From a phage: a DNA stretch of 48,646 nucleotides. The notes below the pieces were generated by a model that was given only the letters and a program-made list of their open reading frames with translations, made no database searches and was not told the DNA's origin. The position numbers and the translations under genes were made by a program. Each line of letters begins with the position of its first letter. Position 1 is the stretch's first letter. The stretch lies in the sequence record NC_136441.1. One strand, 5' to 3'. This document shows, piece by piece, positions 14-46,628 of this stretch.

Positions 14-538
14 ATGGCTAAAAAAACAGAAGCGCCAGCGGCGGAAAGTCTAAACTTTAAAAAGTTATGGAATAAGCGATATTCCGATCTGGTAGGTAGT
101 GAGATTGATAAACGCGCAACGCTAACGCCGGAACAAGTCATGAACCTGATTGTTCAGTATTTTGAGTGGGCGGAGCTAAACGCCATTAAAGCAGGTGAAA
201 CGGCATCATTTCAGGGTCGAGTGTATCAGGATACGATTCACAAGCCGCGTATTTTTACATGGGAAGGGTTAAAGCTGTTTTGCGGTTTTTCCGGCACAGC
301 ACTAGCAAAGTGGAAACTTAAACCAGGCTATGATGTTGTTATTGAGTTTGCGGAATCGGTAATCAAAGAACAAAAATACCAGTTAGCTGCAAACGGAATG
401 ATTAACAGCACCATGATCGCAAAAGAGCTTGGTATTGATAAAGGCGACACGTTCAATATTAGCGCCAACGCAAAAGAGCAAGACAATACAGAAGAAGCGA
501 TGAAAAACGCAGTCGCAAGCGTCCTAAGCAAGATTTAA
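14..538 (+). CDS. terminase small subunit
   Basis: 174-aa ORF with SD GGAGG just upstream, directly 5' of the large terminase; resembles P27-type small terminases from memory (not searched). Confidence 0.55.
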   Translation: MAKKTEAPAAESLNFKKLWNKRYSDLVGSEIDKRATLTPEQVMNLIVQYFEWAELNAIKAGETASFQGRVYQDTIHKPRIFTWEGLKLFCGFSGTALAKWKLKPGYDVVIEFAESVIKEQKYQLAANGMINSTMIAKELGIDKGDTFNISANAKEQDNTEEAMKNAVASVLSKI

Positions 539-549
539 AGGTGAATTCT

Positions 550-2121
550 ATGTTGATTTGGGAAGATTTAACAAAACTTGAAAAGCTGGCTATTAAGGAA
601 TTAAGCACACACGATTTTGATACTTTCGTTAAAATCTGGTTCCCGATCCAGCAGGGCGAAAAATGGATTCCTAACTGGCATCACCTTTATATTGCAAGGG
701 CAATTGATGAAATTATTGAAGGTGTGCGCAAAGATACCATTTTTAACGTAACACCAGGTTCAGGCAAAACCGAATTACTTTCGATCCACTTTCCGCCTTA
801 TTCATATTTGAAATTGAACAAGGTGCGAAATCTGAATATTTCGTTTGCTGATACACTGGTTAAACGTAACAGCAAGCGTGTGCGCGATCTGGTTAACTCG
901 CGAGAATGGCAAGAGCTTTACCCCGCAAAAACTGGTACAAGCAAGGATGATGAATTTCAGATCCTTAATGACGCTGGCAAAGTTCGCCTGGAAATGATTA
1001 GTAAATCAATGGGCGGTCAGATTACTGGTAGCCGTGGCGGTTACATTACGCCTGGCGTTTATTCAGGTTGCGTAACGCTTGACGATCCAGAAAAGCCAGA
1101 TGATATGTTTTCGAAGGTGAAACGTGAGCGCGGTCAAATGATCGCAAAGAACACCATTCGATCACGTCGCGCACATTCAGAAACGCCGATTATCGTTATT
1201 CAGCAGCGCCTACACGCGCAGGATATGACCTGGTTTCTGATGAATGGCGGAATGGGTATTGAATTTGACCAGATATCAATTCCGGCGATGGTTACAGAGG
1301 AATACGGGAAATCGCTTCCTGATTGGTTGCAGCCGCACTTTGAAAAGGATGTGCTTTCGTCTGAATACATCGTTATTGACGGCGTGAAGTATTATTCTTT
1401 TTGGCCTAGCAAGGAAAGCATTCATGATCTTAAAGCGCTACGCGATGCGGATTTGTACACGTTCCTTTCTCAGTATCAGCAAGAGCCAATTGCTCTTGGC
1501 GGTAACGCAATTAACGTTGGATGGTTCCAGTATTACGGAACCGGAGAAAAATCAACGATGCCAAAACCGGATCGCTTTGATTATACGTTTATTACAGCAG
1601 ATACCGCTCAGAAAGAAGGTGAGCTAAACGACTACAGCGTTTTATGTTATTGGGGCATGTTCAAAGGCCGTATATATTTTATTGACGGTGTGCGCGGAAA
1701 ATGGGAAGCGCCAATGTTAGAAACGCAGTTTAAAGCGTTTGTTAAACAGTGCTGGAACCGTAACAAAGAATGCGGAAACTTGCGTAAAATTTACGTGGAA
1801 GATAAAGCGAGCGGTACAGGTTTGATCCAGAATTGCCGCAAAGCATTTCCGATAGAAATTACGCCAGTGCAACGCGATAAAGACAAAGTAACGCGCTGCA
1901 TGGACGCACAGCCAGTGATCAAGAATGGTTATGTTGTATTGCCTGAATCGCATCACATGCTTGCTGAATTTCTGGCAGAGGCGGCGGCATTCACTTATGA
2001 TGATAGCCATCCTCATGATGATATTATGGATAACCTTTTTGATGCGGTTAATATTGAGCTTAACCTTGCTGATAATGCGGTTGATAGAATGAAGCGTTTA
2101 GCTGGATTAGCGAAGCGTTAA
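550..2121 (+). CDS. terminase large subunit
   Basis: about 523-aa ORF; P-loop-like TPGSGKTE near N-terminus, acidic nuclease-like C-terminal half; ATG 550 preferred over in-frame GTG 541 by SD AAAGGTG spacing. Confidence 0.85.
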   Translation: MLIWEDLTKLEKLAIKELSTHDFDTFVKIWFPIQQGEKWIPNWHHLYIARAIDEIIEGVRKDTIFNVTPGSGKTELLSIHFPPYSYLKLNKVRNLNISFADTLVKRNSKRVRDLVNSREWQELYPAKTGTSKDDEFQILNDAGKVRLEMISKSMGGQITGSRGGYITPGVYSGCVTLDDPEKPDDMFSKVKRERGQMIAKNTIRSRRAHSETPIIVIQQRLHAQDMTWFLMNGGMGIEFDQISIPAMVTEEYGKSLPDWLQPHFEKDVLSSEYIVIDGVKYYSFWPSKESIHDLKALRDADLYTFLSQYQQEPIALGGNAINVGWFQYYGTGEKSTMPKPDRFDYTFITADTAQKEGELNDYSVLCYWGMFKGRIYFIDGVRGKWEAPMLETQFKAFVKQCWNRNKECGNLRKIYVEDKASGTGLIQNCRKAFPIEITPVQRDKDKVTRCMDAQPVIKNGYVVLPESHHMLAEFLAEAAAFTYDDSHPHDDIMDNLFDAVNIELNLADNAVDRMKRLAGLAKR

Positions 2122-19994: not shown

Positions 19995-20008
19995 AAGGAG
20001 GTAAATCA

Positions 20009-20080
20009 ATGCCCTGGCTTAACGGTCTGGGCATTTTGTTTTCTTTTGTTCTACGGTGTTCACAACTTAATCCGGCGTAA
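20009..20080 (+). CDS. hypothetical 23-aa hydrophobic peptide
   Basis: ATG 20009 preceded by near-perfect SD AAGGAGG at 7-nt spacing immediately after J; MPWLNGLGILFSFVLRCSQLNPA. Confidence 0.3.
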   Translation: MPWLNGLGILFSFVLRCSQLNPA

Positions 20081-20113
20081 ATAATAAACGTTTGCACAAC
20101 AAAAAGAACAAAT

Positions 20114-20164
20114 AAAATATCTATATAATACATACACTTAAAGAATAATTATTATTATATATCT
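20114..20164 (+). repeat. AT-rich conserved element, copy A (AAAATATCTATATAATACAT-N11-ATAATTATTATTATATATCT)
   Basis: identical arms to copy B at 40917..40967 (same 51-bp length); embedded in a 325-bp non-coding AT-rich region. Confidence 0.8.
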
Positions 20165-20397
20165 CTATTTGTATTCTTATTGTTTCTATTGTTCTCTATG
20201 GTTTGGTGTGGTTGTGTGTTTTGGATTGGTTAATGGTTATATATCTCATGGTATATATTTATATATGGTATCCGGCGCAAATGCGTGAACAATGGAACAC
20301 TAAAACAACAATCAATATAATCATAAACTTACGATGTGATTTTGTTGTCAGTTCCTACTTTGAACGTATGTAAAACAAAAAGAACACATAAAGGCTA

Positions 20398-20425
20398 TTG
20401 ACTACATGAAACATTCGCATATAAT
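20398..20425 (+). promoter_or_regulatory. strong sigma70-like promoter for the recombination operon
   Basis: TTGACT-N16-TATAAT about 30 nt upstream of SD/ATG at 20454. Confidence 0.6.
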
Positions 20426-20453
20426 GCAGACATACCAACGAGAGGATGACAAA

Positions 20454-21509
20454 ATGAGCGATTTTAAAGTTTACACCTTTGACCAGTTAACCAACGATGA
20501 ATATCACGATCCGAAAGGCTGGGCGGCTGAATACGTTAGCGGTTCAAGCCTGGCAGAAATCTTTGCAACTTGTCCGGCTGCATGGAAGTACAAGCCACGC
20601 GAAGAAACAAAGGCGCTTACTTTCGGTACGCAGTCACACACAAACTTCCAGAGTAGTGAGCTATTCGCAAAAGAGTACCGCAGAGCGCCAGCGCCGGAAG
20701 ATTATGAAAACCTGATTACAAGCCAGGCAGCATTGGCAGCGAAATTAAAATCTTTTGGCCTGACTGGTACAAGCGGGAAAACGTATCCAGATCTGATTAA
20801 GATGATGGTTGATTGTGGTGAGGATCTTAATGTTCAGTGGCTGATTGAAATGATCGCAGAGAGCCAAGCGCGATCTGATAACGTTGAATTGGTTCCGGCT
20901 AAAGATTACGACGCTTGCGTTACCATGCGCCGCGTACTGGAAAACATACCGGAACACAACGCTTGCATGAATAGCCCAACAGCACAACGCGAGCTATCAA
21001 TTTTCGGCACTATCAAAGGCGTGAAAGTCAAAGTAAGGATTGACCATGTTGATATTTGCAAGGATGTGCTTGCAACAGTGATTTCCGGCTATGATGGTGA
21101 TGGTAATCCTGTATATAAAACAACGCGATTTGATGAAGCGATTGTGATCACGGATTATAAAACAACGTCAAGCGCTAACCCGTCAGAGTTTGCAAGGCTG
21201 GCATTCAATCACGGATACTACTTGAAAATGGCATTGCAGCATGACCTATTCAAGAAAGCGTATCCAGAAGAAACGCGCCCCGTAGTAGTCAGATTGCTGG
21301 CGCAGGAAAAGAAAGAGCCTTATTTACCGATTGCATACCGCATGACGGATGAACAATTGAAGATCGGACGGCTTCAATACATGAGTGTGATAAACCAGTT
21401 TGCAGAATGCCAGGCAAATGACAGTTGGCCTTCATACGCAAACGGAGAGCCTGAAATTGATCTTCAAACGCCTGATTGGGTACGCAGACAATACAAAGGT
21501 TTTTTATAA
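20454..21509 (+). CDS. PD-(D/E)XK-family nuclease (recombination exonuclease candidate)
   Basis: 351 aa from ATG 20454 (SD GAGAGGA); VRIDHVD ... VITDYKTT resembles a D...(D/E)XK core; first gene of operon with Erf and SSB; ORF-track start 20406 lies inside the promoter. Confidence 0.5.
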   Translation: MSDFKVYTFDQLTNDEYHDPKGWAAEYVSGSSLAEIFATCPAAWKYKPREETKALTFGTQSHTNFQSSELFAKEYRRAPAPEDYENLITSQAALAAKLKSFGLTGTSGKTYPDLIKMMVDCGEDLNVQWLIEMIAESQARSDNVELVPAKDYDACVTMRRVLENIPEHNACMNSPTAQRELSIFGTIKGVKVKVRIDHVDICKDVLATVISGYDGDGNPVYKTTRFDEAIVITDYKTTSSANPSEFARLAFNHGYYLKMALQHDLFKKAYPEETRPVVVRLLAQEKKEPYLPIAYRMTDEQLKIGRLQYMSVINQFAECQANDSWPSYANGEPEIDLQTPDWVRRQYKGFL

Positions 21510-23053: not shown

Positions 23054-23084
23054 ATAAAACCCCGCAATGCGGGGTTTTTTATTA
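23054..23084. terminator. bidirectional rho-independent terminator between convergent genes
   Basis: AAAACCCCGC-AAT-GCGGGGTTTT flanked by A-run and T-run. Confidence 0.8.
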
Positions 23085-25253
23085 CTTAGTAAGCTGAACA
23101 AGCATTGCTTGCATTTCAGCAATTGCGGCTTTCATTTCTGCGATCTCGTTTTTCAACTCTTTAATTTCCTCCTGTTGAGCCTGAATAGTTTTATTCTGCT
23201 TATCTGAATCATCAATCATTTCATTGATCGCGTTAACCAAAAGAGCAGTAACACCGCCATAGCTAACACCTAAATATTCTGAATCTGAAATCTTGTAAAC
23301 CGCTTCCGGTAAAACAGTTTGCACGTCTTGAGCTATTACACCAGCCTCCTCCGAATAGAAAGAATATTCATCTTCATCAAGATTGTTGCGCTTAAAATAA
23401 GTGTAACCTTTTATTGATTTCACTTTTTCTTTAGCGCTTTCAATCTCTTTTAGGTTTGCTTTCAGGCGAATATCGGAAGTGTTAACCCATTGCACAGCAG
23501 ACGCATAACCAGCATCGTTAAACCCATAAACAGCGCCCCTTACATTAAAATGAGCCTCGCAACCTCCAGCGCCATATCTGGCAACATCTATACCAAAAGC
23601 CCAATCACCACCCCACCTTACAACCTTAACAACGTTAACGGCTACATCATCGCTTGGAAGTTCAACAAGCATACCAGCGGCGCGATCACGCCATGCAGTA
23701 AAAGCACCACCCTCAACATTTCCACCTATAAAGCAATTAGCGCCACCGCGTCTAACTCCTTCAACATAAGCGAATCTAGCATCTTCTGGAGCAAGTGATT
23801 GAATAGTTCTGTATGCAATATTGCCACTTTTTGTAAATGCAAACATCACTTGACTATCAGCAATTGCTTGAAGAATCCCATCTCCATTTTGCCTAAATCC
23901 AGTGTCTGTATCACCAATTACTAACGCATTACTTCCAAGCGCATTACCAATACCCCTACCGATAACTATTGAATTGTAATTTATCGCGTTACCGCTTTCA
24001 TCAAATTGATAATAGTTTGTATCACCTCCTTCCCTAGTGACTTGTATTGTTGTTTTTGCTAATCCACCTTGAATTTCGTTGTAAATTCTTGAGTATGAAA
24101 GCTGTACATCTTCTGGACTTTTGTTTATTAAATAAAGAATTCCAGATTTTGCAGAGTTTTTTTCTGTTAGTCTTATTCCTCTAAAAACAGGTATATCAGC
24201 CTCACCAATGCCAAAATTATTCCTTGCTTGGCTTACGTTTGCTGCACCTGTGCCGCCAGCACCAACAGAAAGAGCGGATGTGCTGTTATCGCTATTTCTT
24301 GCAACTCGCCACTCGCCGTTGTTTGCGATCCGTAATTCATAAGTCCATGCAGGGTTACGAAATGAGTTATAATCACCTGGATTTTGACCCTTAACTGAAT
24401 TAACAGCCTCAACTTTCAGCGCCTCCCTTGCTAAATCTTTATTAGCAAGATCATTAAGATTCTGATCCTTATGCAGAAGGTTTTCAGGGTTAACTTGTTG
24501 TGCCCATTGGCGAGCTTCATCACGCGCAGTTTCAGCGCCTTGTTTAGCGTTTCCGGCTGCAACGTTTGATTGTTCAGCGGCAAGTTGTGATTCCTTTGCT
24601 GCATCGCGAGCATTAACAGCCTCGTTTTTAATTGATCCAATTTCAGAAACGGCGCTATCTTTTATTTGTTGCGTCTGCGTTTTTATTGCGTCAGTGTCTG
24701 CCTTAATCTGATTGGTTTCATTGACGGCAGCATCCTTAATCTGTTGAGTCTCAGATACAGCAGCATCCTTAATCTGTTGAGTCTCAGATACAGCAGAATC
24801 CTTAATCTGTTGCGTTTCATTTTTTAGTTGCTCAGTTGCCGCTTTGTCGTTTGCTACCTGTTGAGCATCAGCATTAACCTTGTTAACTAAATCTTGCAAT
24901 GTTTTCAGATCGAAGTTTTTAAAGAATTCAATTGCTTCCTCAATTACCGTTTCTTTACTTTGGTAATAACGCAGCGTTTCCGCTACATCTTGCGCCATTC
25001 CATCGACAGTTAGCGAGTCATTCAACAGGATCACATAATTTCCGTTTGCTACTTGCTCGCCGTCAGTCTGGATCGCTTTCATTTCCGTGTCGCTTACAAT
25101 ATCGCTGATAACCGCCAGCTTTAAAGGCGTGGTTAAAAAAACGATTGTTGCGCCAGTGCGAATAAGAGAAAGCGGCTCACGCCATTTTGTGCCAGTACCA
25201 GTGATAACGCCTTGTGCGTCCATTGCAGCCGTACCAGTGCGATATAAAGCCAT
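23082..25253 (-). CDS. tail fiber with C-terminal intramolecular chaperone (peptidase S74-like) domain
   Basis: 723 aa; C-terminal [15 protein letters not shown] autoproteolysis-type motif and coiled coil; internal 11-aa repeats. Confidence 0.75.
24695..24826 (-). repeat. in-frame 33-bp tandem coding repeats within tail fiber gene (about 4 copies)
   Basis: CAGCATCCTTAATCTGTTGAGTCTCAGATACAG repeated at 24728..24760 and 24761..24793 with degenerate flanking copies; encodes [11 protein letters not shown] repeats. Confidence 0.8.
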
Positions 25254-25417: not shown

Positions 25418-26344
25418 TTATAATAAGTCACTTGCCTTGTAAAGCATCCGCTCTATTCCATTTTTGAATTTTCCGTTAATTGGTAACATAACGTCTAATT
25501 CCCTTTCATCGGCTGCAATAATAGTTTCCTTGTCATCCTTATGGCAAACAACGCGCATTTTGCGATCTCCTTTGTACCTGTATGCTACAATTTCAAGATT
25601 TGATGCAGAGAAACAAGCCCATACTTCTTGTCCCGTCGCTAGGTGGATATGTTGCGCATCAATCCAATCAACGCAAAGATAGATCGTCTTATCAGTCTTG
25701 CCAGTTACTGCAACAGAGCCTCGCGTATAATCCTTAGCGTAAAAACTGCTTTGACCTTCCTCATTGACGAAAAGAATATTACACATATCATCGTCCAATT
25801 CATCACTATGCACTAGGTGGCAAGGAATGGCGTGAATATGTTCGCAGTATCCGTTGTCGTGAGTTTTTACGCCAACTTGATATGATTCACCATCTAACGG
25901 ATAAAACGCCTCAAAAACGCTTAGATTTGTTATTTCCATGCTTTCGGTTTTGCTCATAACATCAACGCATTTTTCGTGTGGCGCTTGAGATCCGAAACTA
26001 TAACCAGAATCACGCTTTGCCGCTTTGTTAGCCTTGTTGACAACCTCAACCGGAACCAGGTTTAACCATTCTCCTAGCGTGTCGATTGCTTCACTGTAAT
26101 TTTCACCACGGATACGCATGAATAATCCGATCCCTGAATCATTTCCGCACTGGTTGCAGATGTTCCCGCCGTCGCCTTTCTCGTTGATTTTATCAGTCCA
26201 GCGAAAGCGATCCTTACCTCCGCAATAAGGGCAAGGTTGATGTTTGCCGTTGAATGTTAATTGAGGAATATCACAAAGTTTCATCAATGCCGCTTGCCAC
26301 ATTCCGCGCATCTTTGGGATCACTTCTTCTTTCTGGTAATGCAT
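25418..26344 (-). CDS. DNA primase (P4-type zinc-ribbon N-terminus)
   Basis: 308 aa; CPYCGGKDRFRW...CNQCGN zinc ribbon; SD GGAGG; between tail fiber and helicase region. Confidence 0.5.
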   Translation of the reverse strand: MHYQKEEVIPKMRGMWQAALMKLCDIPQLTFNGKHQPCPYCGGKDRFRWTDKINEKGDGGNICNQCGNDSGIGLFMRIRGENYSEAIDTLGEWLNLVPVEVVNKANKAAKRDSGYSFGSQAPHEKCVDVMSKTESMEITNLSVFEAFYPLDGESYQVGVKTHDNGYCEHIHAIPCHLVHSDELDDDMCNILFVNEEGQSSFYAKDYTRGSVAVTGKTDKTIYLCVDWIDAQHIHLATGQEVWACFSASNLEIVAYRYKGDRKMRVVCHKDDKETIIAADERELDVMLPINGKFKNGIERMLYKASDLL

Positions 26345-27099: not shown

Positions 27100-29073
27100 A
27101 TGATTCCTAACATTGAAAAGCAGATTGCAGATCTTGGAGAGGAAAGGATTAAGGCAATCCAGAAGCGTTTCACGGTTGGTGAGATTGTCCCGTATGAATA
27201 CCAATGCGTTGCTTACGCTGAAATTGCAAAGCGCTTGAGTAAGTATGTTGATCCGTTTTTCGTTAAAGCGGCGGTGTCGGCAGGTAAAACAATCATCTTT
27301 GCTATGGTTGCGGCTCAGTGCAGGAAAATGGGATTGAAAGCGTTATTTCTGGCGCGTCAATCTGAAATTGTGGATCAGGATTCAAAAGAGATTAGCGCCT
27401 TTGGTGTTCCGAATTCCGTTTATTGCGCTGGCCTGAATACCAAAAGCGCTTATTTCCCGATTGTTGTAGGATCGGAAGGTACTGTAATTGGCGGATTGAA
27501 TAAGGCGTTAGGTGATTACGTCCCACAGGTTTTAGGTATAGATGAATGTCATCAAGTCAACTGGAATGACATTGTTGAAGCCGAGGAAAACGGAGAAAGC
27601 ATAGAGCAGATGATGACGCCGAAAGGTGAACCAGTTGAAGGCAATCCGTTGCTGATTGGTTCAGGCCGCGCACAATACACCATTATCATTGCAGAAATGC
27701 GCCGCCGTTGTCTTGAGACTTACGGTCATCAGTTGCGTATATTTGGAATGACCGGATCGGAATATCGCGGAATTGAGCCGATACTTGTCGAAGATAAAAG
27801 AATTCCTGGGTTTTGGCGTGAGCAGATCACAAACATTGATACTGATTACCTGGTAAAATTTGGTTCAGTTGTTCCCACTTATTTTGGCAATGTTGGTGAT
27901 TTGGGTTACGACTTATCAGAATTTACGCCAGTGAATGAATTTGGCGTTGCTGATTATGACCAGAAGCAATTAAAGGCCATGAGTGACAAGATTCACCAAT
28001 CAGGAACCATGACGCAGAAAATAATGCAGATGGTTCACGAGGTGATGAAAAACCGCTTGTGCGCTCTTGTTACTTGCGCTGACGAAAGGCACTGCAAAGA
28101 GGCAGCGGCGGCGCTTCCGTCTGGCACGAAATATCACATTATTACCGGAAAAACTGGAGAGAAACAGCGGCGCTTATGGCTTGAGGATGCATATGAAGGG
28201 CGCGTTAAATACATCTTCCAGGTTCAGGCGCTAACAACTGGCGTTAACGTTCCGCCGTGGGATACTTCTGTGATTTTGCGTAAGATCGGAAGCCTGACGC
28301 TATTAACTCAGCTTTTGGGGCGTGGTATGCGTCAATTAAAAACATACCATAAAGAAGTATTGGGAATGCACAAAACAGATCACCTTGTTTTAGATTTTTC
28401 CGGCACGATGTTTGAAATGGGTAATTTGTATTTCGATCCTATGCTTGAGCAAGCGCAATTCCAGTTGCGTAAATCGCAGGATAAAGATCCGAAATTTTGC
28501 CCGATTTGCGGAACGGAAAATTCATTCTATGCGCGGCGTTGCATTAATGAAGATGAAAACGGAAATCGTTGTGAGCACTTTTGGACGTTTCAAACGTGTG
28601 AGGATCAGATTGATGGCCGCACAAAGAAAATAACGGTAAAAGGTTGTGGTGCTAAAAATGACGTTGCGGCGCGTGTATGCCGTTGCTGTAATGTTCAGTT
28701 ACGTGATCCAAATGATAATTTATCCGGCAAGATGTACCGCAAAAATGATTGGTGCGACGTGTTAGATTTTAATGTGACGCTGACAAAAAACCAGGCTGGC
28801 GTAATATTCTGCTACACGTTGCGCGATAGTGGCGGCGTAGAATTCAGGGCATACGAAAAATATTTCCCTGAATCAGAACACAAGATATGCAAAACGCTTT
28901 GGACAAAGGCTGTTAGAACACACGTTATAGATCGCCAGGCTGCAAACTATATGATAACTTGCCGCAACGCAATTAAGATCATGAGTTATGCGGGGCAAAT
29001 ATTGCCACCGAAGCGCGTTACGCATCGCAAGAACACAAAGAAAGAAGATTTAATAGCACAGAAGGAATTTTAA
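27100..29073 (+). CDS. SF2 DEAD/DEAH-box-type helicase with C-terminal Cys-rich zinc-finger region
   Basis: 657 aa; Walker A AVSAGKT, DEAH-like GIDECHQ, several CxxC pairs near C-terminus. Confidence 0.8.
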   Translation: MIPNIEKQIADLGEERIKAIQKRFTVGEIVPYEYQCVAYAEIAKRLSKYVDPFFVKAAVSAGKTIIFAMVAAQCRKMGLKALFLARQSEIVDQDSKEISAFGVPNSVYCAGLNTKSAYFPIVVGSEGTVIGGLNKALGDYVPQVLGIDECHQVNWNDIVEAEENGESIEQMMTPKGEPVEGNPLLIGSGRAQYTIIIAEMRRRCLETYGHQLRIFGMTGSEYRGIEPILVEDKRIPGFWREQITNIDTDYLVKFGSVVPTYFGNVGDLGYDLSEFTPVNEFGVADYDQKQLKAMSDKIHQSGTMTQKIMQMVHEVMKNRLCALVTCADERHCKEAAAALPSGTKYHIITGKTGEKQRRLWLEDAYEGRVKYIFQVQALTTGVNVPPWDTSVILRKIGSLTLLTQLLGRGMRQLKTYHKEVLGMHKTDHLVLDFSGTMFEMGNLYFDPMLEQAQFQLRKSQDKDPKFCPICGTENSFYARRCINEDENGNRCEHFWTFQTCEDQIDGRTKKITVKGCGAKNDVAARVCRCCNVQLRDPNDNLSGKMYRKNDWCDVLDFNVTLTKNQAGVIFCYTLRDSGGVEFRAYEKYFPESEHKICKTLWTKAVRTHVIDRQAANYMITCRNAIKIMSYAGQILPPKRVTHRKNTKKEDLIAQKEF

Positions 29074-29833: not shown

Positions 29834-30574
29834 ATGGCTAAGGATTTTCAGGACAAAGCAACCATTGATACTTTTGAGCCGGAAATGGATTTTCATGAAC
29901 TGCAACACGGCAGATATTCAGATATTGCGTTGCGTTCAGGTGGTCATTATCAGCCAGTTAGAGAAAACCCAATGTTCAAGGTTAGCGGCAACCGTTATGC
30001 AGGAAGTAAAACGCCGGACGTTGTGCGCGACTTGTGGGAAACTCCAGATGAAATTGTTGAATACCTTGCTGAACGTTACGGCAAATATGATCTTGATGCA
30101 GCCGCAAGCGAAAACAACAAAAAATGCGATAAGTTTTATAGCAAAGAGACAAACTGCTTAAAGCGTTGGTGGGGTAGCAATAAGCACGTTTGGTTAAATC
30201 CACCATACAGCAATCCAGATCCATTTATCAAAAAAGCAATTGAGCAGATGGAACACGGAAACCAGATTGATATTTTACTTCCGGCTGATAATTCAACTGC
30301 ATGGTTTAGTGACGCACAAAAACACGCGGCAGAAATTATCTGGATTACTGGTGAAACCTGGAAGGATGAAGAAGGTCGCGAATATTCCCGAACTGGTCGA
30401 GTGGCGTTTATTTCTGGCATGACAGGTGAGCCAGTTAGCGGAAACAATAAAGGTAGTGTAATTTTTATCATGCGCCAATTGGAAGAAGGTGAGCAACAGC
30501 AAACACACTATGTGAAGATTAGCGACATTTGCCCTTCCGTAAAAAATAAACGAGCCAAAGCGCGGAGTATTTAA
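29834..30574 (+). CDS. dam: DNA N6-adenine methyltransferase (phage Dam-type)
   Basis: 246 aa; catalytic NPPY motif (WLNPPYS) and DLDAAAS region typical of phage N6-adenine MTases. Confidence 0.75.
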   Translation: MAKDFQDKATIDTFEPEMDFHELQHGRYSDIALRSGGHYQPVRENPMFKVSGNRYAGSKTPDVVRDLWETPDEIVEYLAERYGKYDLDAAASENNKKCDKFYSKETNCLKRWWGSNKHVWLNPPYSNPDPFIKKAIEQMEHGNQIDILLPADNSTAWFSDAQKHAAEIIWITGETWKDEEGREYSRTGRVAFISGMTGEPVSGNNKGSVIFIMRQLEEGEQQQTHYVKISDICPSVKNKRAKARSI

Positions 30575-31349: not shown

Positions 31350-32465
31350 ATGAGTTTAAAAAAGATTACCGACGAGCAATTGATCGCTGAACGTGAGGCT
31401 GGTTTAAAACTGCGTGAGATTGCGGAAAAATACGGAATGAGCTTGCGCCAGGTTGAGCACCGACACAGCAAATTGGCTAAACGTGGTGAAATATCAACAA
31501 TCGGATCACCTGGCTTTGCGGTAATTGGTGAATCACAGCTTAAACGTGCAAATGGTGAGGTTGTAATGACCTGGACTAAAACGCACAAAGACAAAGCGCA
31601 ATTAGAGGCAATCATGCAATCAGCTATGGCTGCATTTTCTGACGAATTGCCACGTCTGGAGCCACAGCCGGAAAAGATTGTTGACTACTCGCAAACGCTT
31701 GCGCTATATCCGATCTTTGATATTCACATTGGCGCAATGGCTCATAAGCATGAAAGCGGAGAGAATTACGACACATCAACGGCAGAAAAGATCATGAATG
31801 AATTCTTTGATTATGCCGTCGATAAAGCACCGAATAGCGAAAAAGCTGTATTGCTGATTGGTGGTGATATGATTCACAGTGACGGCCTGGAGGCGGTAAC
31901 ACCTGCAAGCGGCCACGTTTTGGATCAGGATTCGCGATATGCGAAACTTGTTTATGTTGCCATTCGATCCACGCGTCGAGCAGTAAGCAGGATGCTTGAA
32001 AAGCATAAAGAAGTTGAGATCCAGATCATTGAGGGTAATCACGACCAATCAGGAATGATCTGGCTACGTGCTGCAATGGCGGCGGCGTATGAGAATGAGC
32101 CACGCGTAAAGGTTGATGTTTCTCCGCGAGTCGTGCATCACACTCAATATGGTAAAACTTTCCTGGCTTATCATCATGGTCACACTGTACGCAAGCCAGA
32201 AACGCTTTTAATGATGTGTGCAGCGGATTGGCGGGAAGATTTCGGAAACTCCAATTCAATGTATGCGCATGTAGGGCATTGGCATCACCAGACTGTTACA
32301 GAAACGAGCCTTGGCATTGTTGAGGTGCATAGCACTATGGCAGCAAAAGACGCTTACGCCGCGCGTGGTGGCTGGCGTTCACGTCGCAGGGCTGCGATAA
32401 TTATTTATGATAAGGAATATGGCGAAATAGGGCGTTTTATGTTTTACCCTGAAATGATTGCTTAA
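31350..32465 (+). CDS. HTH domain fused to calcineurin-like metallophosphoesterase
   Basis: about 371 aa; N-terminal HTH-like LKLREIAEKYGMSLRQVEHR; phosphoesterase motifs DIHIG, GGDMIH, GNHD, HHGH; ATG 31350 with SD AAGAGG. Confidence 0.6.
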   Translation: MSLKKITDEQLIAEREAGLKLREIAEKYGMSLRQVEHRHSKLAKRGEISTIGSPGFAVIGESQLKRANGEVVMTWTKTHKDKAQLEAIMQSAMAAFSDELPRLEPQPEKIVDYSQTLALYPIFDIHIGAMAHKHESGENYDTSTAEKIMNEFFDYAVDKAPNSEKAVLLIGGDMIHSDGLEAVTPASGHVLDQDSRYAKLVYVAIRSTRRAVSRMLEKHKEVEIQIIEGNHDQSGMIWLRAAMAAAYENEPRVKVDVSPRVVHHTQYGKTFLAYHHGHTVRKPETLLMMCAADWREDFGNSNSMYAHVGHWHHQTVTETSLGIVEVHSTMAAKDAYAARGGWRSRRRAAIIIYDKEYGEIGRFMFYPEMIA

Positions 32466-33708: not shown

Positions 33709-33904
33709 ACTCAAATTTTCTAGCATGAATTAGCAATTCACCATCATGATTTGTCAGTTGATGCTCTTGATCCCCAAACGCTCGCATATCACTGTAAAGC
33801 AACAGCATTAACGCATAGACAAAATCATCATGCGGAATTTGCATTGCTGAACTTTCTTTCAAAATAAGATCTATCAAATGCTGGCTTGCTGAATAATTCT
33901 TCAT
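33707..33904 (-). CDS. hypothetical protein (overlaps 33828..34220 out of frame)
   Basis: 65-aa ORF; 77-nt overlap with upstream ORF in another frame. Confidence 0.25.
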   Translation of the reverse strand: MKNYSASQHLIDLILKESSAMQIPHDDFVYALMLLLYSDMRAFGDQEHQLTNHDGELLIHARKFE

Positions 33905-34220
33905 CGCTCATTTTCTCAATGTTCATCATCTCCCACACATAACGATTGTAATCACCTTCCAGGCTATGCAACTCAAAATTAAACGGCCTTTTCATCTTGT
34001 TTTTGCACCAGTACACGCAATGAACGCCGTCAAGATATCCATAACCAATCATTCGCGCTATAAACTCTTTGCTTGAACTTGATGCGAAATAGCGTGGCGT
34101 TACCCCCGCATTTTTTGCGAGCCTTTCACATTCACGGTGACGGAATATAAATCTTGCTAACTCTTGGCGGTTGAATTTCTCGCGAGACTCGCAAAAGCGA
34201 TACAGATCTAATAAGAACAT
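33828..34220 (-). CDS. hypothetical protein
   Basis: 130 aa, start adjacent to stop of upstream ATPase gene. Confidence 0.45.
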   Translation of the reverse strand: MFLLDLYRFCESREKFNRQELARFIFRHRECERLAKNAGVTPRYFASSSSKEFIARMIGYGYLDGVHCVYWCKNKMKRPFNFELHSLEGDYNRYVWEMMNIEKMSDEELFSKPAFDRSYFERKFSNANSA

Positions 34221-34222
34221 GA

Positions 34223-35803
34223 TTACCCCATTAACGCCGGATTTACATAAACAAATTTACCAACGCTGCAAACATAATTCTTTTCTTCAAGCATTGGCAA
34301 TAATTGTTCCTCAATTCGTTTCATCACGCCTGATTGACCTGTAAACGGCTTAACCTTACGCGCACTTTCATAGATAGCTCTTGCATTGGTAACGCCTTTA
34401 TTTTGACGTGAGATCTTAATGATGATTTCAATTAACTTGCTCATTTCGGCATCATCGCCAGCGTGACCGGAAGCATTCGCGGCGTTGATATATGTTTTGC
34501 TTAATTCGCTGAACATTACCAAAGCCTCTTGCATTGTCTCAACTTCAATTTCTCGCGACTTTTGCGGCGTACCGTTTGGATTAAACCAATTGCGGATCGT
34601 GTGCAATACTGACGCAATGCGGATCACTTGTTTATCCATTTTACCCAAAGCACCACGCAACATTGTATGTGAATATTTTCCGCCGTCTGCTAAATCCGGC
34701 TCTAATTGCTGGCGAGCAATATTAAGAACACGCATTGCAGAACGTGACGGCTTCAATACAACATTTTGCTCAGTCATGATGTTATGAATCAACTGGAAAT
34801 ATTGCGCCTTTAATTCTTTATCAACTGGCGTGTAATCAAGATCACCATTTTCATCAATAAATACACGCTCGCCTAACATTGTTTTTTCACGTACAAGCAA
34901 GAAACGTTCACTAACACCGATACCCCGCGCCCCTGCATCCATGATCCCTTTTATCGTTTCATCCTGGGCAATTACGCTCATGCAGCCCAACGCAACAAAA
35001 CTCATATTGTTTTCAGAGTTGGCGCGAGCTATTGAAACGTGTCCGGCGTCCCATGCTTTTAGAACCAATTCGCTGTTAGTCTTGCGATCACTATTAGCGT
35101 AAGTCAATCCGAGTAAGCTGTTGATGCTTGTTGCTTCATCGGAAATGACAGCAAAGTTACCCTGGCGATTGTTGATCTTTGCTAACCCTTCCGGCGTGGT
35201 GTCTGATACCGGAAAAACGATATCGCACATTTTTTCTAACTTTTCCTCTAATTCCTCCTTTTCCTCAAACAACGCCGCTAACTCAGTGCCTGAACGTTCA
35301 GCTTTCAATTCCTTTTCAACGCCTTTTAATTTCGCTGAGATCTTCTTTCGCTCTTTCTTGCGTTGTTCGTTGATTCGCTCAACTTCACAGACCATTGGCG
35401 CAATAGCCAGGCTGTTGATTGCTGATTTACCAGTTGATGGCGGCTGACTGGTTACAACATAAAGCGCCGTTGGTTGTTCAGTGCCGTGGTACTCAACTTG
35501 GAAGCGTCCAACCATAGCGGCGGAAACGCAACCTATGAAATGCATATAGGCCGATGATTCAGGAAATTGAACAGATTGCGCAATGCTACGTGACAGTTTA
35601 CCCACAACATCAACATCATTACCCAAAGAGATCACAGGATAACGGTCATTAGCGCCGTTGATATCCTTCACAGGTTCCCAAAAGCTGGATGATTGGCGGT
35701 AGCCGTTAGACTGAATAGCAACGCGAAGCGGCGATGTTCCCTGCGATTCTGCAATGGCTATAACTTGTTGAGGTGTCAATTTGTTGGTGTCAAAGTCAAA
35801 CAT
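34223..35803 (-). CDS. P-loop NTPase with coiled-coil insertion (possible replication/helicase-like protein)
   Basis: 526 aa; Walker A SQPPSTGKS, Walker B AVISDEAT, Lys/Glu-rich coiled coil between them; own motif promoter; SD AAGGAGA. Confidence 0.55.
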   Translation of the reverse strand: MFDFDTNKLTPQQVIAIAESQGTSPLRVAIQSNGYRQSSSFWEPVKDINGANDRYPVISLGNDVDVVGKLSRSIAQSVQFPESSAYMHFIGCVSAAMVGRFQVEYHGTEQPTALYVVTSQPPSTGKSAINSLAIAPMVCEVERINEQRKKERKKISAKLKGVEKELKAERSGTELAALFEEKEELEEKLEKMCDIVFPVSDTTPEGLAKINNRQGNFAVISDEATSINSLLGLTYANSDRKTNSELVLKAWDAGHVSIARANSENNMSFVALGCMSVIAQDETIKGIMDAGARGIGVSERFLLVREKTMLGERVFIDENGDLDYTPVDKELKAQYFQLIHNIMTEQNVVLKPSRSAMRVLNIARQQLEPDLADGGKYSHTMLRGALGKMDKQVIRIASVLHTIRNWFNPNGTPQKSREIEVETMQEALVMFSELSKTYINAANASGHAGDDAEMSKLIEIIIKISRQNKGVTNARAIYESARKVKPFTGQSGVMKRIEEQLLPMLEEKNYVCSVGKFVYVNPALMG

Positions 35804-39905: not shown

Positions 39906-40157
39906 TTACTTAGTAAGCCATTCCACACATTTAATGATGCACTCACCCTGTGAGCCGTAAAAAACACTTATCCCTTTCTGGCAGATTGTCCAGGTGCGAG
40001 ATCCCTTTGCGGTCTGCCTTACTTCAATCTGTAAGCCGCCACGCACCATGCATTTGAAAGCGCCAACCTTCTTACCTTTGCGCTTAGTGGTGTAATAGTC
40101 AGTTACCGTGATGCCTTTGTCAGTTGCCAGGTCAATCGCTTGTTGGATAGTTGCCAC
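39906..40157 (-). CDS. hypothetical protein
   Basis: 83 aa from GTG 40157 with SD AGGGGA; ORF-track TTG start 40199 is upstream of the predicted transcription start. Confidence 0.4.
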   Translation of the reverse strand: MATIQQAIDLATDKGITVTDYYTTKRKGKKVGAFKCMVRGGLQIEVRQTAKGSRTWTICQKGISVFYGSQGECIIKCVEWLTK

Positions 40158-40187
40158 TTTAAAATCCCCTGTCGTTTCGATGTGGTT

Positions 40188-40231
40188 ACTATATCGCAAC
40201 CCCTGAATCGAGTTTTAACAAAAAGTGCTAT
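40188..40231 (-). promoter_or_regulatory. motif promoter (ATAGCACTTTTTGTTAAAAC + 22 nt + TATAGT)
   Basis: minus strand; palindromic TCGAT...ATCGA and GGTT/AACC around the -10. Confidence 0.5.
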
Positions 40232-40341
40232 TTACCAGTAATGATGATCTTCATTTCCGAAGTGCTTACTGATGAATTGAGCAATCAAAATAAGCACATA
40301 TAATACAATAACCAACGTGAATAATTTTAATAAGAAGCAAA

Positions 40342-40524
40342 TCATTTCTTTAATACTGAAAAGTAATAAGGATTTGACAATCCGTGTTTGCGAGCAATTT
40401 TTTCAGCCTCAACAGCGCCAACAATTGATGCCAATATCTCTACGCTATCCTTTCTATCTGTCATATCGGCAGAGTTAGCAAGGTTGATTTGAAAAAACGC
40501 AATCGGATCTTGTGTGAAGTGCAT
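40342..40524 (-). CDS. hypothetical protein
   Basis: 60 aa, SD GGAGAT, first gene of minus-strand early block. Confidence 0.4.
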   Translation of the reverse strand: MHFTQDPIAFFQINLANSADMTDRKDSVEILASIVGAVEAEKIARKHGLSNPYYFSVLKK

Positions 40525-40554
40525 TGTTTTATCTCCAGTTGTTTAGATGTGCTC

Positions 40555-40599
40555 AATGTAGCGCATTCGTTTTGATTGGTTTTAACAAAAAGTGCTATT
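40555..40599 (-). promoter_or_regulatory. motif promoter (ATAGCACTTTTTGTTAAAAC + 22 nt + TACATT)
   Basis: minus strand, first promoter of the leftward early block. Confidence 0.5.
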
Positions 40600-40607
40600 C
40601 ATGCAGT

Positions 40608-40635
40608 AGACCGATTGGTCTAGACCGTTTGGTCT
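40608..40635. repeat. two tandem 14-bp near-palindromes AGACCGATTGGTCT / AGACCGTTTGGTCT
   Basis: direct reading; operator- or iteron-like. Confidence 0.8.
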
Positions 40636-40775
40636 AATGAACGCATCGTTCAACGTATCGAACGCATTCACGATCACGTTATACGATCACAATATGATCA
40701 TGTTGATGATTGATGTGTGAGTTGATGTGATTGAAATTGATTTGATTTGATTAGATTTGAGTAGTGAGTGAGTAG
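40636..40775. repeat. iteron-like cluster of short direct repeats (GAACGCAT x2, ACGATCAC x2, GATTGA/GATTTGA series, GTGAG x2)
   Basis: direct reading of non-coding control region. Confidence 0.7.
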
Positions 40776-40916
40776 AAATAATCACACCTTGCCGATCTCG
40801 TGAAAACTTTTCTCGCAAAACATCACTCCAGGCTACGAATGTTTCGTTTTGTTCCTCGCTGTTCCCAGCCCGACCTTCCGCAGTTTAGCGCAACGTTACA
40901 CAACACGTATAACAAC

Positions 40917-40967
40917 AAAATATCTATATAATACATTGAAAAGTAAGATAATTATTATTATATATCT
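40917..40967 (+). repeat. AT-rich conserved element, copy B
   Basis: same two 20-bp arms and 11-bp spacer length as copy A at 20114..20164. Confidence 0.8.
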
Positions 40968-41188
40968 ATATTGTTATATAACTTGTTTTGCTTGTTTCTC
41001 ATGATATTGATACCCCTTTACTGATTGATAGAGTATAAAATTATAAGATAGGTGCTCTTATTTATTATAGGTGGCGGTGATTTTTAGCGAAATGGTATAA
41101 CGATTTAGAACATAGTTGATTTGAAAGGATAAATTTGCAATTACTGTTACATTGCGTGATGTTTTTGTTGCCTAATCAAAAATAACAC

Positions 41189-41216
41189 TTGACGCATAAG
41201 CCAGGCTTGCTAAGAT
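41189..41216 (+). promoter_or_regulatory. sigma70-like promoter for rightward early block
   Basis: TTGACG-N16-TAAGAT about 35 nt upstream of SD GGAGG and ATG 41251. Confidence 0.5.
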
Positions 41217-41250
41217 TTCTGCATCGAGCAACAACGGAGGATAACCAATC

Positions 41251-41538
41251 ATGGTAAGGGGCAAAATCGTAAAGCGTGACCTATCCATAGTTGATGCAAC
41301 GCCAGAAGATGCAACCAAAGATATCATGCGCCTAATGTACATAGCACGGATATTGGGGGCTGCAAAACCAAACAGGCTGTATTACATCGACATTAAGGCA
41401 TCCGGTCGCGACGTTAATTCATTGCGCCAGGCAATAAACACGATTGCGAAAGAGGATCGCAGAACCATTAAGACAATAACCACTGATAACGGCTATATCG
41501 GCTTTGTTATCATCGACGTTAAAGAAGCGTTTGTGTAA
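41251..41538 (+). CDS. hypothetical early protein
   Basis: 95 aa, SD GGAGGA. Confidence 0.5.
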   Translation: MVRGKIVKRDLSIVDATPEDATKDIMRLMYIARILGAAKPNRLYYIDIKASGRDVNSLRQAINTIAKEDRRTIKTITTDNGYIGFVIIDVKEAFV

Positions 41539-41549
41539 AGAGGTGAATC

Positions 41550-41993
41550 ATGGAACAAATGACAAGTAAAGAGTTTTGCGAAAAATTGCGTGAAGCAGCA
41601 AGAGCGGCGGCAAAAGGTGAGGTGATCAAGTTGCCAGTTGCCTACATAACAATGAACGTCCAGGCAGAGGACGCAAAGAAGCTAAATTCCTCATACATTC
41701 GCACGATCATGAATCGTGTTCCAGAAGTAAAAGAGGTTGGATCTGTAAGCGTAAAGAAAAAGACAAGCGATGACGGCGCGGAATATTACGAGATCGCAAT
41801 CAACCGTGACACAAAGCGCCGCATCGTAACAACTAATGACCTTCCGGCAATCAAAGAGCATGAGCGCGAAAAACTGGTCGAAAAGATTATGCGTATATCG
41901 CCGGACTTCTCACACCTGGACGATGAAAAGGCACTTGTTGCAATGCGAGCGGTTGCCACGTTCAAAGATCTGATTAAGGAGATCTCAAAGTGA
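41550..41993 (+). CDS. hypothetical early protein
   Basis: 147 aa, SD AGAGGTGA. Confidence 0.5.
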   Translation: MEQMTSKEFCEKLREAARAAAKGEVIKLPVAYITMNVQAEDAKKLNSSYIRTIMNRVPEVKEVGSVSVKKKTSDDGAEYYEIAINRDTKRRIVTTNDLPAIKEHEREKLVEKIMRISPDFSHLDDEKALVAMRAVATFKDLIKEISK

Positions 41994-42225: not shown

Positions 42226-42269
42226 ATAGCACTTTTTGTTAAAACTCGATTGGGGTAGTTTGGCATAAT
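42226..42269 (+). promoter_or_regulatory. motif promoter (ATAGCACTTTTTGTTAAAAC + 22 nt + CATAAT)
   Basis: long hairpin TCGATTGGGGTA/TACCCCATCGA with -10 in loop; upstream of 42308. Confidence 0.55.
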
Positions 42270-42307
42270 TACCCCATCGAAACGAAACGCACTAACAGGA
42301 GAACATC

Positions 42308-42577: not shown

Positions 42578-42977
42578 ATGAAATTAGCACGTAACGCGGT
42601 TTATGGCTTACACCTTAATAAAGGCGGCAAAGGCTCAACTTATGCACACCTTTTTCATGTTAATGAGCGCGGTCAAATTGATATTGCAATGTATGTTGAC
42701 AAACTGGTTAAAGGTTGTGAGTCCAACAAGTTCAGACCAGATCTGATTGAATACGATCACACACACAGTCACGACCACTGGTTAGGTGGTTAAAGGTTGT
42801 GAGTCCAACAAGTTCAGACCAGATCTGATTGAATACGATCACACACACAGTCACGACCACTGGTTAGGTGGTTATAAATTTACAATGCTGGATAGCCATG
42901 TTATTGACACAAGAAAATTAACGAATCGTGACTATAGGCGCATGGCTCGAAAAATCCTGAGGCAGAAAGCGCAATAG
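42578..42977 (+). pseudogene. early gene split by a perfect 82-bp tandem duplication (fragments 42578..42793 and 42786..42977)
   Basis: two ORFs share a 28-aa overlap (VKGCESNKFRPDLIEYDHTHSHDHWLGG); removing one 82-bp copy restores a single 106-codon ORF. Confidence 0.55.
42705..42868 (+). repeat. perfect 82-bp tandem duplication (2 copies) flanked by TGGTTA microhomology
   Basis: 42705..42786 is identical to 42787..42868; next 6 nt (42869..42874) repeat the unit start. Confidence 0.9.
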
Positions 42978-44089: not shown

Positions 44090-44133
44090 ATAGCACTTTT
44101 TGCTAAAACTTGCTAAGGCACATTTGATAAAGT
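44090..44133 (+). promoter_or_regulatory. motif promoter (ATAGCACTTTTTGCTAAAAC + 22 nt + TAAAGT)
   Basis: hairpin GGCACA/TGTGCC; upstream of 44167. Confidence 0.5.
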
Positions 44134-44166
44134 GTGCCTTGTCGAGACAAGCAAGGAGAATGACTA

Positions 44167-44600: not shown

Positions 44601-45168
44601 AATTATAATCCTCAATGCGCCTCCTGGTGCTGGTAAAGACACGATAGGCAAGATGATTTCTGTCTATTCGCCTGGTAAGCAATGCCGAATCATTAGCTTT
44701 AAAGAGCCAATGTTTGATATTGCATTAGCTATCCTGGGCAAAGAGAACTATAAGCGTTTCATGCTGGCTTACGATGACAGAGAGCAGAAAGAAAGGCCGC
44801 AAACGTTCCTGATGGGTATGTCACCGCGCGAGTTCATGATCTGGATTAGCGAGGATGTGATCAAGCCTAAATTCGGTAAGGATTATTTCGGCGTAAGGTT
44901 TAATCAGAAAGTAAAAGAGTGTGATGCTCCTGTTGTTTGCACTGATGGCGGTTTTCCAGATGAAATTATAGCGCTAATCAATGCTGGTAATGAGGTGAAG
45001 TTATGCCGCTTGCATCGCGAAGGGTTCACGTTTGCAGGTGATAGCCGCAACTACATTCGAATCAATCCCTATTACCAGAAAAACGGATATAGCGAGCACG
45101 ATTATAAATTGGTTGATAAGCAACCGAATGTAACTGTAAAGGAAATTATTCGCGATCACCTTAAATAG
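44593..45168 (+). CDS. P-loop nucleotide kinase (dNMP kinase-like)
   Basis: 191 aa; N-terminal P-loop ILNAPPGAGKDT, resembling the GxxxSGKDT pattern of phage dNMP kinases. Confidence 0.5.
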   Translation: MAKIIILNAPPGAGKDTIGKMISVYSPGKQCRIISFKEPMFDIALAILGKENYKRFMLAYDDREQKERPQTFLMGMSPREFMIWISEDVIKPKFGKDYFGVRFNQKVKECDAPVVCTDGGFPDEIIALINAGNEVKLCRLHREGFTFAGDSRNYIRINPYYQKNGYSEHDYKLVDKQPNVTVKEIIRDHLK

Positions 45169-45208
45169 CACGAATTGCTAAAACTTGCGCAAGGCCATTT
45201 GTTATAGT
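45165..45208 (+). promoter_or_regulatory. motif promoter, variant (ATAGCACGAATTGCTAAAAC + 22 nt + TATAGT)
   Basis: motif overlaps TAG stop of kinase gene; hairpin AAGGCCA/TGGCCTT. Confidence 0.5.
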
Positions 45209-45248
45209 GGCCTTATTCAAGAGAAGCAACCAATCAGAGGAATAAGCG

Positions 45249-45788: not shown

Positions 45789-46030
45789 ATAGAAAAATGC
45801 TGGTACGCGCATTCGCAAAGATTGCTAAAAGATGGGGTGATTCAGCTAAAACACCTTACACGTTTAGTATGTACGGTTACAAGAATGCTCGCGCCTGGGG
45901 TCGCTGCATTGCGGATAACTACAACTCCGAAATTCTGGAAGATTTCGCAAGCTGGATTGATACGCCGCTAAATGAATGGGGCCAGGCTGAATATGATTGT
46001 TTTGCTGATGAAGAAATTTCTTGCTGGTAA
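45785..46030 (+). CDS. hypothetical protein
   Basis: 81 aa, ATGA overlap. Confidence 0.45.
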   Translation: MNRKMLVRAFAKIAKRWGDSAKTPYTFSMYGYKNARAWGRCIADNYNSEILEDFASWIDTPLNEWGQAEYDCFADEEISCW

Positions 46031-46041
46031 GGAGAATTAAC

Positions 46042-46554
46042 ATGATCGCTAAAAATGACCTTTGCAACCTGTTAACTGCTGGTAATGATTATCAGGTTTT
46101 GAATAGTACAGAAGACCGTTACTTTATTGAGTGTGACAATGGTGATCGCATGTGGATTAAAAAAGGATTTTTCGAAAGCGAGCACCTAAGCAATGCAAAG
46201 CGGATCGCAGATGAAGCAAGCGCATTAGCAGAGCGTGAACGAATTCGCGATATAGTAGCGGATCAGGTTAGAAATTCTTGTTTGCCTGGTGGCGATATCT
46301 TCAAATCAATGCGCGGTGAAATGACGGTTGGAATTCAAGATCGAGTAATTGAAAAATCAGTTGATTATGTAATTGAGAATGCGAAATTCAATGCGTTGAT
46401 TGACTCAGAGCATAACGAATACGTCAAAGTATTAGAGCAACTGCGTGAAGTGCTGCGAGTGCCGGAAGGTAAAAACATAGTGACACATGCAAAGGTTGTA
46501 AGAGCGCTTGCTGATGCTTTACTTGACGTTTATCCAGGAATGAAGTGCAAATAG
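46042..46554 (+). CDS. hypothetical protein
   Basis: 170 aa from ATG 46042 with SD AAGGAGA. Confidence 0.5.
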   Translation: MIAKNDLCNLLTAGNDYQVLNSTEDRYFIECDNGDRMWIKKGFFESEHLSNAKRIADEASALAERERIRDIVADQVRNSCLPGGDIFKSMRGEMTVGIQDRVIEKSVDYVIENAKFNALIDSEHNEYVKVLEQLREVLRVPEGKNIVTHAKVVRALADALLDVYPGMKCK

Positions 46555-46594
46555 CACTTTTTGTTAAAACTTCCGCGAGGGCATTTGTTAAAGT
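46551..46594 (+). promoter_or_regulatory. motif promoter (ATAGCACTTTTTGTTAAAAC + 22 nt + TAAAGT)
   Basis: motif overlaps TAG stop; hairpin GAGGGCA/TGTCCTC. Confidence 0.5.
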
Positions 46595-46628
46595 GTCCTC
46601 ATTGAAGCGAAACACGGAGATTTAGAAA

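Follow-up and report, generated by a model that had tools for sequence, protein, structure and literature searches.

A conserved non-coding gap in a Tlsvirus genome is probably the T1-type pac site with divergent promoters

Introduction

Because T1-like phages often contaminate laboratories, perform generalized transduction and are candidates for therapy, a defined pac would be useful for engineering these phages and for predicting transduction. The closest described system is phage TLS, which packages its DNA by the headful from a pac site and whose record was opened at that site (German et al. 2024, PMC11447400). The TLS pac was mapped via a submolar 6-kb pac-HindIII fragment, narrowed by a 2.7-kb EcoRV fragment, and named at base level as 'AGATTT' from its resemblance to the pac of P22 (PMC11447400). 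TLS virion DNA was reported to be GATC-methylated, and the genome to contain no iteron-like repeats (PMC11447400). No replication origin was found in TLS (PMC11447400) or in SU57, and the SU57 paper places a read-depth step and the pac in the corresponding untranslated region. PhageTerm placed a forward terminus of the Rtp-like phage MSK, which packages by the headful from a single site, at 36,862, and found no termini in either KanT1 or 7WV. The TLS and Stevie papers also describe a T1-family repeat, the function of which is given as unknown.

The pac and divergent-promoter region of T1-like phages has been described before; its finer anatomy is new. Here we analyzed the phage sequence NC_136441.1 (48,646 nucleotides, hereafter the window), in which positions 40600-41250 had been proposed from sequence to be a replication origin or a regulatory hub (the original prediction). 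We conclude that this region is probably the known T1-type pac (~40600-40830) together with divergent promoters, and not a newly found origin.

Results

A bipartite non-coding gap in a Tlsvirus genome

Since about 50 records of Tlsvirus (Drexlerviridae, T1-like) match the query region with 92-96% identity, and since the window opens 13 nt upstream of the small terminase gene as several deposited Tlsvirus genomes do, we treated the window as a single Tlsvirus genome, complete and circularly permuted. A 94% identical counterpart of this enterobacterial region is also present in OR786094.1, deposited as 'Streptococcus phage MBBL140' with S. agalactiae as the stated host; its small terminase subunit (TerS) is 99% identical, and mislabelling or contamination is the probable explanation of this record.

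The leftward gene block starts at 40524 and the rightward block at 41251; the 726 bp between them (40525-41250) are non-coding. The earlier statement that the region holds no ORF stands in so far as none is conserved or credible, while mechanical ORFs of 31-51 aa do occur. The elements listed in the original prediction were all found where it had placed them. The gap is bipartite, with a left third at ~40573-40835 and a right part at ~40828-41250, and has the following features:

40541..40599, minus strand: leftward promoter-like module, made of a family 21-nt repeat, a -10-like hexamer and a short leader to the ATG at 40524
40608..40635, no strand: two tandem 14-bp palindromes, AGACC-N4-GGTCT, unique in the genome
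40639..40668, no strand: alternating GAACG / CGTTC pentamers
40669..40700, no strand: block with three Dam sites (GATC) at 40672, 40685 and 40696, at intervals of 13 and 11 bp
40700..40782, plus strand: run of short TGAT/GATT/GTGAG repeats in one orientation, free of C, and proposed as the recognition core of pac
40719..40811, plus strand: zone of the likely first packaging cut, with rightward packaging, from record openings, the MSK terminus and the TLS fragments
40828..41250, plus strand: ~420-bp upstream module including a TA-rich core at 40916-41000, paralogous to 19995-20455
41189..41216, plus strand: TTGACG-N16-TAAGAT, the sigma-70 promoter that serves the rightward block, with a TG before its -10

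The gap was aligned across 13 Tlsvirus genomes, and the promoter at 41189-41216 across nine. The best conserved part is 40573-40835. To its right conservation drops steeply, except for the TA-rich core (CTATATAATA) and the TTGAC of the -35 at 41189. Self-BLAST of 40525-41250 showed that 40600-40830 is single-copy in the window, and an invariant 17-mer of the left third was confined to Tlsvirus contigs in IMG/VR. When we looked for copies of the pac core outside Tlsvirus, for example in satellites, E. coli genomes and plasmids gave no match, and GTDB genomes gave only chance-level matches in unrelated taxa.

Two tandem repeats lie elsewhere in the window. A perfect 82-bp tandem duplication at 42705-42868 (2.1 copies, 100% identity), within the rightward ORFs 42578-42793 and 42786-42977, looks very recent. 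A 33-bp unit is repeated in tandem at 24701-24819 (3.6 copies, 88% identity), within the 723-aa leftward ORF 23082-25253, whose homologues in relatives carry a tail fibre label. A 'GntR-family' label on the Mishu homologue of 46021-46554 was set aside, being without Pfam support.

Packaging ends of relatives map to the left third

The end evidence used here is published data from relatives, namely the restriction mapping of TLS and the PhageTerm analysis of MSK. Position 1 of the TLS record (AY308796) reads AGATTTTGTGATTGAAATTGATTTGATTTGATTAGATTTGAG, and the end of that record holds the family repeat, the palindromes, the GATC triad and TGATGATTGATGTGTG. With its end joined to its start, AY308796 aligns to the window and TLS position 1 falls at ~40719, inside the repeat run. 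The left third is equivalent in position to the published TLS pac. Because the HindIII site at 5876 and the EcoRV site at 2733 of the TLS record are consistent with the published fragment sizes, the record was opened at the assigned pac, with packaging to the right.

A search for matches to the P22-type pac (AAGATTTATCTG / GAAGATTTATCTGAAGTCGTTA) with up to 3 mismatches found 58 against 64 expected, which is the chance level, and the sole match within the repeat block lies at 40706, with 3 mismatches. Because the 'AGATTT' assignment rests on this similarity to P22, the resolution of the TLS pac is that of the gel-based mapping, ~100 bp.

The MSK terminus at 36,862 falls in the homologous divergent gap, 20 bp past GTGAGTGAGTG. 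The T1 record was opened within a GATGTGATT|GTTG block of matching layout, and the PHB17 record directly after TGATTGTGAGGGGAATC. Placed on the window, the record openings of TLS and MBBL140 are at 40719, those of GS71, GS156 and GS166 at 40778, and those of YSP2 and KKP3830 at 40810-40811. The record openings of relatives and one published PhageTerm terminus are within ~90 bp of TLS position 1, and several of the openings may be copies of the TLS or T1 conventions. The start of the LL5 record was dropped as end evidence, LL5 having been reopened for synteny only. A first cut at ~40720-40810 followed by rightward packaging is supported by the published mapping in relatives.

A C-free run of same-oriented repeats

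The run of GATTGA, GATTTGA and GTGAG repeats noted in the original prediction is present, with a period of 5 at 40718-40760 in Tandem Repeats Finder (TRF) and GTGAGTGAGTAG at 40764-40775. TGAT reaches its genome maximum here, at 9 per 90 bp, and none of 100 shuffles reached 9. The 83 nt at 40700-40782 contain no C at all, which is the longest base-free run in the genome. Among the 13 genomes, 17 of the 20 positions of TGATGATTGATGTGTGAG are invariant, as are 38 of the 55 positions in the repeats that follow it. The original prediction had named an origin mapped elsewhere, together with repeats not conserved among related phages, as evidence against itself; for the T1-like phages in the papers used here no origin has been mapped. 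The repeats are conserved, and comparable repeat blocks are found in T1, PHB17 and MSK.

We propose that the run is the recognition core of pac, predicted to be read by the small terminase. The terminase genes are:

14..538, plus strand: small terminase subunit of the P22 gp3 family (PF16677, 41.8 bits; phrog_606), the presumed pac reader
541..2121, plus strand: large terminase subunit (PF17289, Terminase_6C), the presumed nuclease and motor

Within Tlsvirus, where the repeat core is conserved, TerS sequences share 92-100% identity; in PHB17 TerS is 53% identical and the repeat block is different, a comparison that covers few lineages. On the circular map terS lies ~7.9 kb downstream of the repeat site. 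In P22, Sf6 and SPP1, unlike at the site described here, pac is not ~7.9 kb from terS, and this distance counts against the pac reading.

The region lacks the features of an iteron origin

The original prediction read these repeats as iteron-like and the region as a candidate origin. At such an origin, an initiator of the phage would bind both repeats and palindromes, the TA-rich DNA would melt, and the phage helicase and primase would be loaded. The repeats do adjoin TA-rich DNA, and the layout of repeats followed by TA-rich DNA is also seen in T1 and MSK. The conserved GATC cluster resembles oriC and P1 oriR. The TLS and SU57 papers report no origin, so that none has been mapped elsewhere. 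However, the repeat units are 4-7 bp long, next to two 14-bp palindromes, and are not iterons of 17-22 bp; the term iteron-like does not hold for units of this size. There is no DnaA box, TTWTNCACA having 4 matches in the window and 0 in the region. Nor does an initiator gene adjoin the region: the flanking genes encode tiny proteins without a functional family match (none, phrog_18483, phrog_28623 and DUF7174), and the primase, the helicase and a DUF3987 ATPase lie 5-15 kb from the gap. The GC skew merely mirrors gene orientation, and the repeats coincide with the mapped packaging ends.

The AT-rich element points the same way. Copy B of this element at 40948-40996 was confirmed as 78% identical to 20145-20193, and self-BLAST extended the similarity to 40840-40996 against 20037-20193 (70%, E 9e-17). 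In a four-way alignment with the two copies in TLS, the similarity spans ~420 bp, from ~40828 to the ribosome-binding site, at 53-58% identity, and both module copies share CTATATAATA and the TA-rich core. The second copy (~20.0-20.4 kb) lies between the tail-fibre terminator and a recE-like gene, is without the repeats, and has at its end TTGACT-N16-TATAAT (20398-20425), which corresponds to TLS P51. The module at 40828-41250 is also far more variable among relatives than the left third. Because the module recurs at 20 kb before a second sigma-70 promoter, the AT-rich element belongs, as judged from sequence, to a generic module lying upstream of both main sigma-70 promoters and is not a melting element tied to the repeats. 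With ~420 bp the module is of unusual length for so compact a phage genome, and one copy stands upstream of each main sigma-70 promoter.

Thus, of the attributes of an iteron origin that we looked for in the region (at least three direct repeats of ~17-22 bp, an adjacent initiator, DnaA boxes and a locus-specific AT-rich element), none was found, and with the repeats sitting at the TLS pac the origin claim was not upheld. We consider an origin at this site unlikely. More natural places to seek one are the following loci:

25418-26344: primase
27100-29073: helicase
33828-35803, minus strand: pair of a 130-aa protein, annotated as HTH in TLS, and a 526-aa DUF3987 P-loop ATPase

A rightward promoter and a leftward promoter-like repeat module

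The sigma-70-like promoter at 41189..41216 was found as listed. Its hexamers match at 9 of 12 positions and carry the TG extension, their spacing is within 16-18 bp, and they are conserved in relatives, the TTGAC of the -35 being invariant in the nine genomes aligned across the promoter. It corresponds to TLS P01 at 523-549 and is followed by GGAGG at 41236-41240 and the ATG at 41251.

At the other end of the gap, the family repeat copy at 40580-40599 reads AATAGCACTTTTTGTTAAAA on the minus strand and is followed by a -10-like TACATT at 40560-40555. The T1-family repeat has at least 14 copies in the window, each oriented with transcription, and 27 of the 34 positions of its copy in the gap are invariant among the 13 genomes. 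The 21-nt repeat is merely the 5' part of a ~65-nt module, of which 20 copies were compared, among them:

40598-40541, minus strand: repeat module of the gap
42226-42290, plus strand: repeat module
44090-44155, plus strand: repeat module
45165-45230, plus strand: repeat module
46551-46615, plus strand: repeat module

In 15 of the 20 copies the -10-like hexamer begins exactly 38 nt after ATAGCAC, and TGn often precedes it. The bases that bracket the hexamer are complementary within a copy and different between copies (permutation p = 0.0006), for example GGCACA/TGTGCC, GGCCA/TGGCC and GGGGTA/TACCCC. The ~65-nt module resembles a promoter class of its own, in which a hairpin would enclose the -10.

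The palindromes are optional

The two tandem near-palindromes were recovered as AGACCGATTGGTCT at 40608-40621 and AGACCGTTTGGTCT at 40622-40635, and their junction forms a perfect 10-bp palindrome, GGTCTAGACC. The motif has no further occurrence in the window, and none of 100 dinucleotide shuffles gave tandem near-palindromic 14-mers. Eleven of the 13 Tlsvirus genomes keep the palindromes, and ElisaCorrea and CF1 have an unrelated 45-bp cassette instead:

ElisaCorrea ~35730-35790 and CF1 ~31500-31545: replacement cassette TCAGCAAAAT.ACCAACGTTCATCTTAACGAACAATC.GTTC, aligned to window 40607-40655

The swap is independent of the TerS variant. TerS of CF1 is 100% identical to that of the window, which rules out the palindromes as the specificity site of the terminase, and TerS of ElisaCorrea is in the same 92% class as those of Punny and Mishu, which keep the palindromes. 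A search for a trans-acting partner by gene presence and absence in five whole genomes found no ORF of the window that was specifically absent from the palindrome-less genomes; the only gene co-varying with the cassette in this comparison is the adjacent 106-aa leftward ORF. A dimeric protein probably binds the palindromes, which are dispensable. Because they are lost in 2 of 13 genomes and the swap does not follow TerS, we regard them as an optional, putative protein-binding site that lies outside the terminase target and is not the core of the region.

Next to the palindromes, the 8-mer units of the original prediction were found, GAACGCAT at 40639 and 40660 and ACGATCAC at 40670 and 40683, as pairs that occur at chance level by a rough analytic estimate of pairs at such spacing. 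The GAACGCAT repeats belong to the alternating pentamers of 40639..40668, in which 16 of 32 positions are invariant. The ACGATCAC unit is not kept in relatives, where only its GATC core remains.

The regulatory-hub half of the original prediction fits the gap, which has a rightward sigma-70 promoter, a leftward promoter-like module and palindromes resembling protein-binding sites. It could be asked whether the whole region is purely transcriptional, its motifs being operators or activator sites of the divergent promoters and pac lying nearby but not in these repeats. That the palindromes are directly upstream of the leftward module, and that the cassette co-varies only with the adjacent leftward gene, would suit such a reading, as would the presence of the two promoters themselves. 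Yet the promoters are ~640 bp apart, far beyond the needs of control, and the best conserved block (40669-40800) adjoins neither of them, is strand-asymmetric and contains the mapped ends. The most operator-like element, the palindromes, is the one part that relatives can lose. We therefore hold purely transcriptional control to be quite improbable, and retain pac with divergent promoters as the preferred reading.

A small RNA encoded by the G+C-richer island at 40778-40915 was also considered. This island is non-coding and is flanked by AT-rich stretches, but an Rfam scan of 40000-41600 gave a best hit with E 0.24 and 14.6 bits against a 60-bit cut-off, the folding z-scores of the two strands were +0.70 and -0.91, and 40836-40915 is poorly conserved, with indels. 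An RNA gene here is highly improbable.

The GATC triad is conserved

All 12 columns of the three GATC sites are invariant in the 13 genomes, while 14 of the 37 columns of the block vary, most of them separating two haplotypes; the variable columns would all miss the GATC columns by chance with P about 7e-4. Local density was discarded as evidence, since ~98% of random placements give three GATC within 30 bp. The triad is informative by conservation alone, not by density.

The window also encodes a methyltransferase:

29834..30574, plus strand: phage Dam methyltransferase (PF05869, 210 bits), predicted to methylate the triad

A phage-encoded Dam and the GATC methylation reported for TLS DNA are both features of a P1-type pac. 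TGATC(A/G) hexamers on both sides of the cut were not found: the three GATC hexamers are on the left side only, the third alone is TGATCA, and the GATC at 40794 is not conserved. By analogy with P1, the triad might be a Dam-methylation switch that times the first packaging cut, with the 83-nt C-free run serving as a track around which a terminase ring would wrap; we offer the two together as a tentative and rather doubtful proposal. If the switch were true, methylation-timed packaging would have been invented a second time, independently, and with an unrelated small terminase of the P22 gp3 type.

Discussion

The results suggest the following course of events for the region as pac with divergent promoters. 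Late in infection, the small terminase (14-538) would bind the same-oriented TGAT/GATT/GTGAG repeats on concatemeric DNA and, as known for the family, recruit the large terminase, which would make the first cut between ~40720 and ~40810. The DNA would be reeled in rightward for slightly more than one genome length, and a few further headfuls would follow. The promoter of the family-repeat type would fire leftward from ~40599-40555, and the sigma-70 promoter at 41189-41216 would fire rightward with the ~420-bp module upstream of it, a module reused before the recombination genes. Binding of the terminase to the repeats, the exact position of the cut and the roles of the GATC sites and the palindromes are conditional parts of this scheme.

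We propose annotating the region as the pac and divergent promoters of a T1-like phage instead of as an origin. The pac of the T1 family is at present defined to ~100 bp, and its assignment to a 'P22-like' sequence fails statistically. The GATC triad, the C-free TGAT/GTGAG run and the optional palindrome cassette would provide a concrete target for a precise pac of the family.

Compared with known systems, the region shares with iteron-type origins (lambda ori, plasmid oriV) direct repeats beside AT-rich DNA, and differs from them in the size of its repeats and in having neither an adjacent initiator gene nor DnaA boxes. It shares with the pac of P1 the clustered, conserved GATC hexamers beside the cut zone, one of them exactly TGATCA, and a Dam of its own. 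In P1, 4+3 hexamer sites flank the cut; here there are three sites on one side only, and the terminase is of the P22 gp3 type. With P22 the window has in common a small terminase in PF16677, and packaging in P22 is likewise headful and processive. In P22 the pac occupies 22 bp within gene 3 (quoted in PMC11447400), whereas the site described here is non-coding, repeat-based and far from terS.

T1 and the Rtp-like phages show the same order of elements: family repeat, family-specific palindromes, GAT-rich or GTGAG-type repeats, end or record opening, TA-rich DNA and promoter. Rtp-like MSK likewise packages by the headful from its single site. The sequences are not alignable to those of the window, the palindrome half-sites are TTGCA or TTCCA versus AGACC here, and in MSK no GATC cluster was seen by eye within the stretch displayed.

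The pac region of TLS is the closest of all. TLS differs from the window in having two identical palindromes, the second of the two haplotypes flanking the GATC triad, and another first rightward gene with its own upstream DNA. The TLS paper names only 'AGATTT' as pac, the GATC triad, the repeat run and the palindromes being undescribed there (PMC11447400). The DNA of the two phages is orthologous and can be aligned base for base from the family repeat to ~40835, it is flanked in both by divergent blocks of small genes, and TerS is 100% identical.
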